This document shows positions 11,890 to 46,466 of a DNA stretch of 64,000 nucleotides, one piece after another (the stretch's first letter is position 1; the number at the start of each line of letters is the position of its first letter). The DNA lies in the NCBI RefSeq assembly GCF_006345805.1, contig NC_042999.1, forward strand, positions 6,758,001 to 6,822,000, given 5' to 3'. The notes beneath the pieces were generated by a model. That model was not told the origin of the DNA, did not search any database, and saw nothing but the letters and a program-made list of their open reading frames with translations. The position numbers were made by a program, and so were the translations under genes. The DNA comes from Octopus sinensis (Eukaryota).

Positions 11890-11916
11890 CTGATGAAGTG
11901 TCACTCCCGAAACGTC
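11890..11916 (+). ncRNA. Degenerate minimal hammerhead ribozyme motif
   Basis: CTGATGA-AGTGTCACTCCC-GAAA-CG-TC with palindromic ACGT stem III and GUC triplet; stems I and II pair poorly. Confidence 0.4.
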
Positions 11917-13729
11917 AGATCACTCTTCTCTCTCAACAACTTATGCAAACTCACAACGAGCAACGAGGAGTTGGCGTTGTCAGACGAAGTACTAGAGATA
12001 GTAGCCAAATATTAAGACGTGATAGTCACGCCTGGAATAATTTTGATCATAGATCCGCTCGATTAGAGCTCACCTGGTGCTACACAACTGCAATAACATG
12101 AATAATACCATGAAATTAAATATAATTATTTTGTGCGCCCGTTTACAATTTTGTTAATTTTAGCGTCTGGTAAGATAACAAGTCCAGTTCTTTCATTATC
12201 ACAAGATCATAAAGTATAAGAGCGAGTAGAGTCATTGAGATGTTAATCGATTCCAGTGTTTGATCGATTCTTATTTTACCGTCTTGGAAAAGATGAAAGG
12301 TAAATCTGTTCCGACGGACATTAAATAAAACCAACTTAAAGCGACACAATAAATATAAATAAGTGTAAACCATTCCATAACAATCATTCCAACATCAATA
12401 GTGTTTCCAGAAAAGGTATTAAATTTGCTGTTGTTTATCATTAACAAACGATTTGGCCTTTATTTTAAGAAGGTCGGGCAAGATTTGAGGAAGATTAGCC
12501 TGCCATTTCTAACAGCTCGAGCGACTACGTGGAGACCACCGCTGTTGACTTGTACTTAGAATGGGTAATTTTACAAGCCAGTTTTGTTGAAGGGACACCT
12601 TCATGTGATTCAAGGAAGATATTTCTTATTGTCCCCCTCCCCCCAGGAATAGAAGGTACCCAGTATAGTCATCCAAAAATACACTCGATAGTTTTACAGT
12701 GCTGACACTGCCTTCAACAGTCAAATCTACGAGACTGCAATTAGATTTTGGTGAATTCTGTAATTGTGAGTGATGCCTTAGGCTCTTGGACACAGTATTG
12801 TTATAATGAGAGAAGGTATGAAACTATAATTTGTCGACTAGACTACGGTTAATTAGTCAATAAGGTCACAATGTGCAGCGGGTAAAAAAATGAGAATTTG
12901 GAGTATATACTTTGCAATACAGTTTCGGCTCTTTCTGTTTTGAGTGGCCAAAAAGATATGGCTTGCATCCTTGCACATCGCCGACATGAGGATGTCTTAG
13001 CATAAAATATTCGTAGGAAAACAACAAGCAGCTACTGTGGTGTTATTCCACAACGATGATGCTTGTCAAGGTAGATTCCAGAAGTGTTTGACACAATATG
13101 GTGGCAAAAAATAAAAAAAAGTGAAAGAAACAAATCGAAAGGGGGTTGGGCCATGGACATTGTCATTATTGCTATTTGTTGGTGGCTCCCTAATCCTGCT
13201 CCCTACTCCTTTGCGCTGGTCAAACAACAATCCTCCAACCCACGGATTTGTTTGGGTGGTCGTTGCTGGTGAGGGTTTTACGAGGTCGGAGTTCAAATCC
13301 TACCTCAGCCTCTTTTAGTCGCTTTTTGCGACACGCAGAAAAGGTGTTGGGTCTATTCTTTGGCATGCCAGTCTCCAAACGGCACTTGAGCCACGGGAAA
13401 TGAAGTGTCTTTGCTCAAGAGCACAACACGCTGCCCCAGTCCGGAATCGAACTTGTAATCAGGCGATTGTGAATGCAATACCACAACCACCCACTCACGC
13501 GCTTTCACTCACTATTATGGCACATAGATATCATTGTTGATTAAAATATTTGTGTACAAGAAGCATTTTTAAGGGTGAAACTTTTTTTTGTGCCGAATGT
13601 GACAAGAAAGTCGTTTGTGGGTACAAAAAACAAAAGAATCCAAAAAACTGTTTTTCAATCAAATAATCTGAGATGGGAAGAAGCCTTCCAGGCGGAAGCT
13701 GTTTGGAACGTGACCTGTCGCAGCAAATT

Positions 13730-14095
13730 ACGATGACGACGACGACGACGACGACGATGACGATGACGACGACGACGACGACGACGACAGCGACGACGAC
13801 GACGATAACAACGACGACGATGATGATGATCATGACGATGACGACAACGATAATGACGACGCTGACGATGACGATAACGATAACGACGACGACGACGATG
13901 AAGATGACGACGATGACGAAGACGACGATGACGATGACGACGATGACGATGACGATAACGACGATGACGACGATGACGAGGACGACGACGTTGATGATGA
14001 CGACGACAACGATGACGATGACGACGACGACGACGATGACGACGATGACGACGACGACGTTGATGATGACGACGACGACGACGGTGATGACGATG
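13730..14095. repeat. Compound (GAC/GAT)n microsatellite
   Basis: Seen directly. Confidence 0.95.
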
Positions 14096-14295
14096 GTGGG
14101 GAATATGATGACCGAAATTTTGGTGGGATGATCTGTAGAATCGGTAGATCACCGGACTAAACGCTTTTCTAATTTCAGTTCTATCCCCCAGGCAGCAAGT
14201 TCATTTCTCGCCGAAGTCAGTGTCATCGTAGTGACCGTGCAATGAGTACGAAGCATTTATTGGAACCGAATCAGCGCCTCCTATAGCCGTCTCAC

Positions 14296-14431
14296 CAGAA
14301 TACGTGGCCTACAGCCAAAGCCGAATAGAAACACCAGCAAATATAACATGTTTTTGCAACAACATCAAACACGGCTGACCAGCAGATTATATATTCATGC
14401 TTTGAACAATGAGCAGAGAAAGTGGCAACGT
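14296..14431 (-). other. Candidate internal exon (136 nt), coding status unknown
   Basis: Pyrimidine-rich acceptor ...TATTTTTATCCCTATTAG, donor TG|GTGAGA, one open frame; no recognised homology. Confidence 0.3.
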
Positions 14432-14774
14432 CTAATAGGGATAAAAATATAGTAAGATAAACATAAAAATGCAATAAAAAACAGCAAAAGTAGCCAAAAA
14501 AACAACAACAAAAAACTCGAACTTGTTTTGAAAGGACGGCAGCCATTATAAGTGGGGAAACTTGAAAGTATACCAACGAAAAATCAATCGGCTATTATTG
14601 TATTTATTTTGTGCAAATATGATAGAGTTCGATTGATTGGAGTGTTGCAATTGGAGACGTGAAATGTATAATTAGCTGTATGGGTGTTCGAGAGAGAGAG
14701 AGAGAGAGAGAGAGAGAGAGAGAGATAGGGGGGGGAATCGGATGTTGTGATGTTCACGAATTTCTTAATGCTTT

Positions 14775-15255
14775 CATCGTCATCACCCTCATCATCATCA
14801 TCATCATCATCATCATCATCATCATCAACAACATCATCATCATCACCACCATCATCATCATCATCCTCATCACCCTCATCATCATCCTCATCACCCCCAT
14901 CATCATCATCATCATCACCCTCCTCCTCCTCATCATCATCATCATCCTCATCATCATTATCCTCATCACCCTCATCATCACCCTCATCATCATCATCATC
15001 CCCATCACCCTCATCCTCATCCTCATCATCATCATCATCACCCTCATCATCATCCTCATCATCATCATCCTCATCATCATCAACATCATCATCATCATCA
15101 TCATCATCATCATCATCACCCTCATCATCAACACCCTCATCATCATCATCATCCCCATCACCCTCATCCTCATCCTCATCCTCATCATCATCACCCTTCT
15201 CCTCCTCCTCATTATCATCATCATCATCATCACCATCGTCACCATCATCATCATA
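14775..15255. repeat. Compound (ATC)n microsatellite; resumes at 15660-15800 after a SINE
   Basis: Seen directly. Confidence 0.95.
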
Positions 15256-15259
15256 CTCG

Positions 15260-44303: not shown

Positions 44304-44531
44304 GACTATGTTTGAATTTTGCAGATAATAAATTTTTTATTAAATGCTACATCTCCATTTTCTTATTTTCTTTTGAATGAGTGTATATATATATTATATA
44401 TATATACATACATACGCACACACACACACACACACACACACACACACACACACACACACACACAACACACACACACACACACACATATATATATATAAAA
44501 TCAAAATAAGCAACAAGGATATCCAAGGTAG

Positions 44532-44619
44532 TGTAGTACAATGGTTTCATGCTACTTCATTTTATTAAACGCAGTAAGTATTACATCAGTTTTAAAATGT
44601 CGAGCAATCTTCAGCCACA
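44532..44619 (-). ncRNA. Type I hammerhead ribozyme (copy 1)
   Basis: TGTGG-CTGAAGA-T-TGCT...AGCA-T-GAAA-CCATTG-TA-CTACA; stem II extends through CATTTTA/TAAAATG and AAAC/GTTT. Confidence 0.7.
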
Positions 44620-44863
44620 TATAGAATTTTTTAATTAAACGGACAATGCACATTTTTATACTTATTTCATATATATATATATTTCATATATAAATATACT
44701 TCATATATATATATATATATTATATATATATATATATACATACATACGCACACCCACACACACACACACACACACAACACACACACACACACACACACAC
44801 ACACACACACACACACACATATATATATAAAATCAAAATAAGCAACAAGGATATCCAAGGTAG

Positions 44864-44951
44864 TGTAGTACAATGGTTTCATGCTACTTCATTTTATTAA
44901 ACGCAGTAAGTATTACATCAGTTTTAAAATGTCGAGCAATCTTCAGCCACA
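44864..44951 (-). ncRNA. Type I hammerhead ribozyme (copy 2)
   Basis: Identical to copy 1, 332 bp away. Confidence 0.7.
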
Positions 44952-46037
44952 TATAGAATTTTTTAATTAAACGGACAATGCACATTTTTATACTTATTTC
45001 ATATATATATATATTTCATATATAAATATACTTCATATATATATATATATATATATATATATATATATATATGCATACATACGTACTAACACACCCATAC
45101 TTCATTCAATTAATATCCAACGGGTTGGTGTTTGGCGGGGGTCTGCCACTGAAATATTTGTCAGTTTGACATGGCTGACGTTGTTTACAGCTGTCAGCAA
45201 TATCTATCTGATGATAACTATTACCGAATCAATGATACCCGGGTTTTGCTCGGGAATATATTGTGGTGTCGATGACAGGTATTAAATTGTCAAATCTTTA
45301 GACTCGAGCTTGACATATCAACTCGGGGAGCCGAACAGAAACAAAATAATACAAAGTGTAACAACCTTTTATACACGAAAGACTGAACTTGACTTTCTGT
45401 CAGGCTTCAAAACGTTTAATGAAATCATTTTCTCATTTTATATTTTTTTAAATATTCTCTCTAGAATGTCAGTAAATAGATATTTTGTACGAAATTAGCT
45501 TGATAATTCAATGAAAAAGAAAGATGACAACATCTCTATTCTATCTATATCTCGGTGCTTTATTAAAATTTTACTGTTGAAAGGAAAAAAACAAACAAAA
45601 CAAAACAGAACAAACAAAACCATTTCTGAAGAATTCTAAAGACGCAGTTACCGTTTTCTTTCTGTCACAATAATCGGTAAATAAGATAAATATTTAACAA
45701 ATTGTTGATGGAACTCTTTCGCAAATAACAAAATAAAAGCAGCAACGATAATAATAATGGTTTCAAACTTTGTCACAAGGCCAGCAATTCTTCTTGTAAC
45801 AATGAGTGGTGGTAGCAGGGGAGAAGAAGGAATATAAAGTGGGAATGTGCCCGTGTTCGGGCGTGCATGTTTAGGTATGAACATGCGCGCTTACGCGAAG
45901 ACTATGAACTTTTTACCTCCTTACTTTTACTCCCATCCCTCACTTAGCGGTCATTCAAATAGATCTTTTGTCTTAATAACGGTCAATCACAGTAATTTCC
46001 CTTGGTATAACGGTCATTTTCATAGCATTTTTTCCGA

Positions 46038-46112
46038 TGGCCGGATAACTGAAGAGATGGCAGCGTGGATTTCCACCTCAACATCTGAAACTCGGAGTTT
46101 TGTTCATGGCTA
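46038..46112 (+). ncRNA. Type I hammerhead ribozyme
   Basis: TGGCC-GGATAA-CTGAAGA-GATG...CATC-T-GAAA-CTC-G-GAG-TT-TTGTTC-at-GGCTA; 11-bp bulged stem I with G-U pairs; TA tract about 100 nt downstream. Confidence 0.7.
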
Positions 46113-46280
46113 CCGAATAATTGTCACATATTACATTTACAGATAAATTCGTCTATTTACATAATATCGAGGTCTCTTTCATTCTTTTGTTGTCTTACCA
46201 TTTCTATCAATATATATATATATATATATACATATATATATATATGTATATATGTATATATATGTATATATGTATATATA

Positions 46281-46466
46281 AAGCAAATAAGTAACAAGGA
46301 TATGAAGGTATTAGTGCATTACGGCCGTTTCAATGCACTAATACCGGGACAGCCTTGTTACTTATTTGCTTATTATTCACCTAACTTCGAGCTGTGCAGA
46401 CAATCCTGGACAGATTTGGTGCCTCAAATTAAGTGCCTAATTCTACTGAATCTTCATTATTTCTTA
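46281..46466. mobile_element. Fold-back copy of the 38568/44497 family containing a half hammerhead
   Basis: 19-bp plus 14-bp hairpin at 46281-46371; the minus-strand loop reads GAAA-CGGCCG-TA. Confidence 0.7.

Follow-up and report, generated by a model that had tools for sequence, protein, structure and literature searches.

The Hydra clade of Penelope-like elements (PLEs) is defined by CxCX5C, CxxC and CxH motifs and by the absence of CCHH, and its hammerhead ribozymes, its (TA)n targeting and an octopus family, Hydra-1_Obim from Octopus bimaculoides, have already been published (Craig et al., 2021, PMC8557442). Among the literature retrieved on octopus Penelope elements with a hammerhead or a GIY-YIG endonuclease, only this study was relevant. 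Minimal type I hammerheads have been described from PLEs (Cervera and de la Pena, 2014, PMC4209133), and metazoan non-LTR (long terminal repeat) retrozymes are described as combining a type I hammerhead with low GC and many copies (Cervera and de la Pena, 2020, PMC7229834; Li et al., 2026). What PLE hammerheads do is called unclear in one of these accounts (PMC8557442), and the ribozyme is reported to be dispensable in vitro in another study (PMC11167929). Here, these systems are compared with a stretch of 64,000 nt from Octopus sinensis (NC_042999.1, positions 6,758,001 to 6,822,000; hereafter the window), which lies inside a 2.72-Gb assembly, has a GC content of 38% and contains abundant microsatellites. 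A sequence-only reading of the window had listed nine hammerhead or half-hammerhead folds and ascribed them to a non-autonomous retrozyme-like system mobilized by Penelope proteins. Eight of the nine sites are very probably 5'-truncated 3' ends of six protein-coding PLE families, each with a predicted type I hammerhead, which would insert through a nick made by their own GIY-YIG endonuclease in (TA)n and through reverse transcriptase (RT) priming inside uncut RNA.

The eight sites are members of dispersed repeat families that share a hammerhead core, family-specific stems and a palindromic stem III. In searches of the same genome, 40 candidates were scored per family; the first-look candidates, which are not copy numbers, amounted to 1965 for family A (sites 44532 and 44864), 3351 for its sister A2 (38697), 1457 for B (17452), 2771 for C (19307), 670 for D (44223), 3880 for E (46038) and 620 for F (46320). 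The description of the sites as mostly unrelated in sequence holds, with the exception of 38697, 44532/44864 and 46320, which are related to one another. The window was also searched with a type I hammerhead descriptor allowing even-length stem III loops, with 20 block-wise dinucleotide shuffles as controls. With an exact CUGANGA core, four complete folds were found, at 17534(-), 44226(+), 44614(-) and 44946(-), against a shuffled mean of 0.05; when two core mismatches were permitted, there were four folds against a mean of 1.3 (largest 4). Because the shuffles can then reach the real count, a descriptor match is not enough to accept the degenerate sites, which are backed instead by their family membership. 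Site 46038, whose core is exact, was missed because its stem III loop has 7 nt. A one-mismatch match at 60477(-), with a TTGATGA core and a 6-bp stem I, is of a kind as frequent in shuffled sequence. The Rfam scan returned no hammerhead family among 106 matches in the window, nor among 92 matches from seven family loci. Of the checks named in the sequence-only reading, the shuffling thus came out in favor of the exact cores and not of the relaxed ones, the Rfam comparison came out negative, and conservation of cores and stems at the family level, described below, was borne out.

The 5' ends of the copies are ragged, and for this reason the families were walked upstream. A GIY-YIG endonuclease frame lies upstream in all six main families, one of Neptune type (19307) and five of Hydra type (17452; 44223; 44532/44864 with the sister 38697; 46038; 46320), and the 3' untranslated regions (UTRs) measure 0.75 to ~3 kb across families. 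RT is reached in three of the six: RT and GIY-YIG share one frame that is open in C and broken in A and E, and B, D and F show GIY-YIG only. In family C, GIY-YIG was found upstream in two loci that are 89-90% like the window copy (L088, L096), and a younger sister subfamily, ~73% alike in its 3' end, contains open frames of up to 949 codons, with an RVT_1 match at E 1.4e-8. Two of its loci (L276, L278) carry the hammerhead in both pseudo-LTRs (pLTRs) and have frames with DKG, a CX4CxxC linker and CxxC in the endonuclease; the Neptune signature of CX2-5CxxC, CCHH and DKG is present. Family C shares with the Neptune clade DKG, the CX4CxxC linker, CxxC inside the GIY-YIG core, RT followed by endonuclease in one frame, pLTRs with a minimal hammerhead and a microsatellite target, and differs from it in a CUGUNGA (A6U) core in both the old and the young subfamily. 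In the young Neptune-type subfamily (L276, L278 and L279; C10, C11634), nearly identical copies of the endonuclease are numerous and frames of 700-950 codons are open; it is a candidate for recent activity.

Among the Hydra-type families, GIY-YIG and hammerhead lie on the same strand in 17 of 25 loci of family A, about 0.95 kb apart with GIY-YIG above, and in 8 of 25 loci of family E at ~0.75 kb, three of which resemble segmental duplicates. One E locus (L454) runs from a pLTR piece into an ATG, RWK, RT and GIY-YIG, and one A locus (L448) contains DKT, RT and GIY-YIG; both frames are broken. GIY-YIG is linked in two of six extended loci of B (L443, L445) and in four of 11 loci of D, and it is reached in F via one locus (L311) chained through another (L293; 75% over 1410 nt). 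The CxCX5C linker is exact in A, B and E, occurs with an internal stop in F and is degenerate in the single copy of D that was read; the endonucleases of A, B, D, E and F have CxxC and CxH and lack CCHH. RWK was found in E (L454), DKT in A (L448) and NKT in E; the RT regions of B, D and F lie beyond the sequence reached. pLTRs are present in L276, L278 and L454. As in the published Hydra clade (PMC8557442), the endonuclease is C-terminal with CxCX5C, CxxC and CxH, the target is (TA)n, and there are inverted copies and tails; the RT of family E is, by eye, like that of Hydra-1_Obim, although the hammerhead sequence given for that element is absent from all families here. The clade is described as shorter than 3 kb, a general and not a strict figure, whereas L454 has ~3 kb, L448 has ~3.5 kb, and the UTRs of B and D alone have 1.6-3 kb; some elements here exceed the published length on account of their long 3' UTRs. 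Pfam recognized neither the Hydra-type RT pieces, nor an 83-aa Neptune C-terminus, nor the GIY-YIG remnant in the window. The same architecture of element is described in PMC8557442 and PMC11167929, and the upstream frames support the earlier proposal of Penelope-kind elements in several families, mobilized by Penelope proteins, with the difference that these proteins are encoded by the families themselves.

The ribozyme folds are likewise family traits. The exact type I core (CUGANGA / GAAA / UH) is carried by A, B, D and E, and C and F are each off at one position. The commonest core with its next base is CTGAAGAT in A (72/91 copies), CTGAAGAA in B (47/57) and CTGAAGAG in D (30/50) and E (42/61). 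In family C, core position 6 is U (A6U) in 57 of 59 copies, and the register is certain because position 7 varies (T 38, A 14, C 4, G 3) while U6 is constant; T at this core position also predominates in four public contig sets. In family F, core position 4 is C (U4C) in 20 of 26 copies, a difference from the published Hydra clade. An earlier study reports low activity for A6C and cites U4C from a viroid (Perreault, 2011, PMC3088659); an A6U family was not found in the literature searched, outside of which falls the study of PLE hammerhead variants by Luense et al. (2017). Each of the six families carries a predicted type I hammerhead, with unusual predicted cores in C and F.

Stem I is family-specific, with own-family pairing of 0.72-0.98 (the E value is lowered by an alignment gap); combinations with other families pair at 0.02-0.97, the high values arising through G-U among A, A2 and B and between C and D. 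In an alignment of 41 natural copies of A, A2 and F, which are related families, 88.8% of cells are paired and 83 cells have double changes, compared with 39.4 after shuffling (0/500 shuffles); structures slid along the alignment pair at 28-51%. The structure was drawn from the very sequences tested and spans three subfamilies. The self-pairing energy of the stem III palindrome is -5.8 to -14.1 kcal/mol in undamaged copies of A, A2, B, E and F, and -0.9 in the window copy of family A, in which the palindrome is broken; the predicted self-pairing fits the published dimer model. A palindromic stem III whose sequence changes, as claimed, is the family norm, and it fails in the damaged A and C copies of the window. 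Both these families and the Hydra clade of PMC8557442 have near the 3' end a hammerhead with a CUGAAGA/CUGAUGA core, whose stem II has a mismatched or wobble pair at its base and whose stem III is palindromic; ACUCGGAGU of family E also appears in the published table. However, stem II is a long irregular hairpin of 55-60 nt in A, A2, B, D and F, compared with a published loop 2 of 3-10 nt. The minimal PLE hammerheads (PMC4209133) share the type I form, a short helix I, an unpaired base after A9 (family C), palindromic positions around stem III, wide within-genome diversity and a prevalence of lone truncated copies; by comparison, the Hydra-type ribozymes here have longer palindromes (8-9 nt) and a long stem II, and G10.1-C11.1 is replaced by U-U, A-A, G-U or A-U.

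Of 149 copies found by upstream queries, 138 have (TA)3+ no more than 200 nt past the cut site, against a background of 22% in the window and 42% in the fetched loci. At the eight window sites, the distance from the predicted cut to (TA)3+ is 38, 94, 135, 83, 39, 39, 111 and 39 nt, and the description of all sites but 11890 as lying about 35-130 nt ahead of (TA)n is thereby confirmed. Four Hydra-type families have two classes of 3' end past the predicted cut (A +37 and +136; B +38 and ~+112; E +41 and +110; F +39 and ~+130), family C has one, at about +93 to +107, and family D is spread over +48 to +96. The tails measure 70-100 nt, compared with 30-40 bp in published PLEs. Where a copy is tandem or bears a tail, TA-like letters stand directly past the short end (TATAAT or TTTAAT in A, TATAAA in D, TTTATT in F and TATATATTAT in the young C subfamily), which suggests short primer-template pairing; the anole element is reported to prime without homology (PMC11167929). 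All of the inserted 3' ends lie beyond the hammerhead, which means that the template was uncut or rejoined there.

By published PLE biochemistry, a partial tandem would be transcribed from its upstream pLTR, the GIY-YIG endonuclease would nick both strands of the (TA)n tract, and RT would start inside uncut RNA at two sites, ~+38 and +110 to +136 from the cut in the four Hydra families. The two starts could yield a short-ended copy and an inverted, tail-bearing copy, and early RT drop-off in the long UTRs could leave copies that are mainly UTR. Judging from its anatomy, the hammerhead would cleave only as a dimer through the palindromic stem III, or with the help of a protein, and would be likely to trim the 5' end of the transcript rather than set the end of the insertion. 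This role of the ribozyme is much less sure than the identity of the elements.

Another possibility is that the fold is kept chiefly as a landmark bound by protein: in unrelated Hydra families it would place RT initiation at ~38 nt past the cut, where TA-like letters of the RNA would pair with the nicked TA repeat. Cleavage could then be slow or dispensable, and entire families could live with cores regarded as crippled (A6U in a recently amplified Neptune subfamily, U4C in a Hydra family) and with weak bases of stem II. In each of A, B, E and F the short ends are concentrated between +36 and +41, where no sequence is common to B, E and A/F. In the published Hydra table, as recalculated here, consensus ends lie 29-47 nt past the cut in 10 of 24 cases and 87-152 nt in 11 of 24 (PMC8557442). 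Catalytic mutants are reported to be without effect on insertion in vitro (PMC11167929), and the constancy of U6 in family C next to a varying position 7 also points this way. However, no 38-nt end occurs in C or D, the spacing may be plain inheritance within the clade, and the retention of G5, G8, A9, GAAA, U16.1 and the palindromic stem III through compensatory change fits selection for catalysis. Such a landmark is rated an unlikely role; if true, it would answer what PLE hammerheads are for.

If instead the hammerhead cut in vivo and RT ran off the new 5' end, many copies would begin at the cut site. This was examined in 187 copies from five families, picked by the sequence after the cut and with the query copies excluded. 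Truncation between -110 and +2 was found in 86 of them, and only 4 of these 86 lie within 2 nt of the cut site, which is the chance level (p 0.53). Copies starting there number 1/35 in A, 0/39 in A2, 0/35 in E, 0/39 in B and 3/39 in F; the three F copies and the inverted F partner in the window, all 1-2 nt from the site, speak for run-off, although two F cut-site junctions show microhomology. That inverted partners start at the cut site was an idea derived from the window copy and a query-biased set, and it failed in the 187 tail-selected copies. The absence of a peak of 5' ends agrees with the report that unprocessed RNA is the main substrate in vitro (PMC11167929), and run-off from a cut template is rated very unlikely. 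Four public contig sets searched for the family C pLTR gave no ends and no informative joints.

The non-autonomous retrozymes of the sequence-only reading would be short hammerhead units in tandem arrays, with circular RNAs and borrowed Penelope proteins. Most copies are indeed short and frame-less, retrozymes are reported to derive from PLE pLTRs (10.64898/2026.07.22.740005), and 11 same-family neighbor pairs are direct. Yet of 124 such pairs within 1.2 kb, 107 are head-to-head and 6 tail-to-tail, (TA)4+ separates the two members in 9 of the 11 direct pairs, and both a direct pair in the window and a further locus (L134) duplicate the microsatellite as well. No array beyond two units was seen. 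The published metazoan retrozymes (PMC7229834; Li et al., 2026) differ from the present families, which have no tandem monomer arrays, no fixed unit length and ragged 5' ends, with homology that continues into their own GIY-YIG frames in all six cases. Since these frames lie upstream and head-to-head neighbors far outnumber direct ones, the families are taken as truncated copies of autonomous PLEs; for them, a retrozyme origin is largely refuted and can be given only a very small probability. An origin of the folds by chance in AT-rich repeat DNA, which holds for 11890 and which the lack of an Rfam hammerhead and the shuffles at two mismatches might suggest, is refuted for the eight family sites and close to nil in probability, given the excess of exact cores, the cores and stems that are family norms and the same kind of fold position in seven families.

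The ninth site, an isolated CUGAUGA...GAAACGUC motif at 11890..11916(+), was dropped as a hammerhead element, as it has no second copy and no stem I, and its membership in the set is unsupported. The motif is left uncovered by all 39 other genome matches, the pattern occurs twice in the window against 0.70 by chance (at least two occurrences in 15 of 100 shuffles), and the forced hammerhead fold has +5.8 compared with -5.6 kcal/mol. Of the nine folds listed earlier, eight thus stand as family members. A short old repeat (75-85% identity, ~40 matches) lies just downstream, at 12014-12100.

Several points weigh against the assignment to protein-coding PLEs that insert from uncut RNA. No open full-length Hydra frame occurs among the loci read, those of L448 and L454 being broken. 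Family F hangs on one GIY-bearing locus and a chain, and the upstream walks to a frame cover the six main families, with A2 placed as the sister of A. The clade calls were made by motifs, and the Pfam GIY-YIG matches score under the curated cut-off. The F copies that begin at the cut site, in the window and elsewhere, are unfavorable to priming in uncut RNA, and the covariation of A, A2 and F, given how its structure was drawn, represents few independent events. Frame-less derivatives of the long low-complexity UTRs could also be amplified and would be invisible in top-40 samples. Finally, cleavage, expression and transposition of these elements are predictions from DNA sequence.

Most of the window copies are damaged. 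Family B is represented by an intact 3' end at 17418..17707(-), with the core from 17534 and the predicted cut after 17456; its short end lies 38 nt past the cut in (TA)22, and the hammerhead is its lowest-energy fold. An inverted upstream piece of the B 3' UTR, in head-to-head orientation, follows at 17729..17947(+). A decayed Hydra-type GIY-YIG C-terminus fused to its own 3' end occupies 18319..18721(-); the remnant proper spans 18419-18721 and has CxxC and CxH, and this copy has lost its 3' UTR, with the hammerhead region, by deletion. The Penelope GIY-YIG remnant noticed earlier is real. As a query it led not to A-F but to an older family whose hammerhead region has decayed, and by its motifs it represents an additional, older Hydra-type family. 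The family C 3' end lies at 19262..19441(+), with the core CTGTTGA from 19311 and the predicted cut after 19338; its stem III reads ACAT where the family has the palindrome ACGT, and its A6U core is family-wide. The A2 copy at 38568..39092(-), with a long tail, has its core from 38779 and its cut site at 38703, both mutated (CTGGGGA and AA, where relatives have CTGAGGA/CTGAAGA and TA).

A family D 3' end lies at 44091..44385(+) (core from 44226, predicted cut after 44300), with an inverted remnant of a D tail upstream at 44048..44091(-). The family A 3' end at 44496..44670(-), in which the core starts at 44614, the cut is predicted after 44537 and the palindrome of stem III is broken, has a second copy at 44828..45002(-); the two are a single insertion that was doubled, microsatellite included, by a local tandem duplication of 332 bp. 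This repeat was considered as a retrozyme dimer and rejected because the unit contains the target microsatellite. The family E 3' end at 45853..46210(+) has its core from 46049, the predicted cut after 46099 and a long end at +111. Family F is present as a short 3' end at 46281..46333(-), a 3' half with GAAA, stem III and the cut site and without core and stem II, whose seeming stem is an inversion junction with the inverted, long-tailed F partner at 46334..46465(+), which begins at the predicted cut site.

Five PLE-type families (G, D, A, E and F) lie within the 2.5 kb of 44020-46465, several with common or abutting TA tracts, and nested insertion into earlier TA targets is likely there. Family G (site 43991; 43460-44032(-) in the window) is dispersed, with 1675 first-look candidates; of 36 copies, 25 carry the core GTGAACA (G3-C8), and the family pairs GTCA with TGAC in stem I and shows both TA ends and head-to-head pairs. 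On the ribozyme motif, inversions and TA ends alone, it appears PLE-like, and because of these inversions and ends the interpretation of 43991 as the inverted repeat of a DNA transposon was dropped. A very common repeat resembling short interspersed elements is found at 266-635, 7750-8348, 28547-30381 and many more positions in the window, locally as 148-, 184- and 241-bp tandems, and is also inserted in the UTRs of families B and D. Mariner-like transposase copies occur at L458:3700-4850, in L449 and in L446, one of them inside a family D 3' UTR, and a frame with an array of C2H2 zinc fingers lies upstream of a family B insertion (L442:800-1600).

By their sequence features, these are elements of a known kind, and five or six octopus-type Hydra families and one Neptune family are added to the described clade. 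The long stem II hairpins and the 3' ends clustered ~38 and 110-136 nt past the predicted cut are additions to published work, and the predicted A6U and U4C cores may be. The short fragments of this genome that combine a hammerhead with TA are PLE ends. One genome thus offers a panel of natural variants (canonical, A6U, U4C and the neighboring G3-C8) together with a regular spacing from ribozyme to insertion end, and this panel and a Neptune family with open frames make the question of PLE hammerhead function testable.

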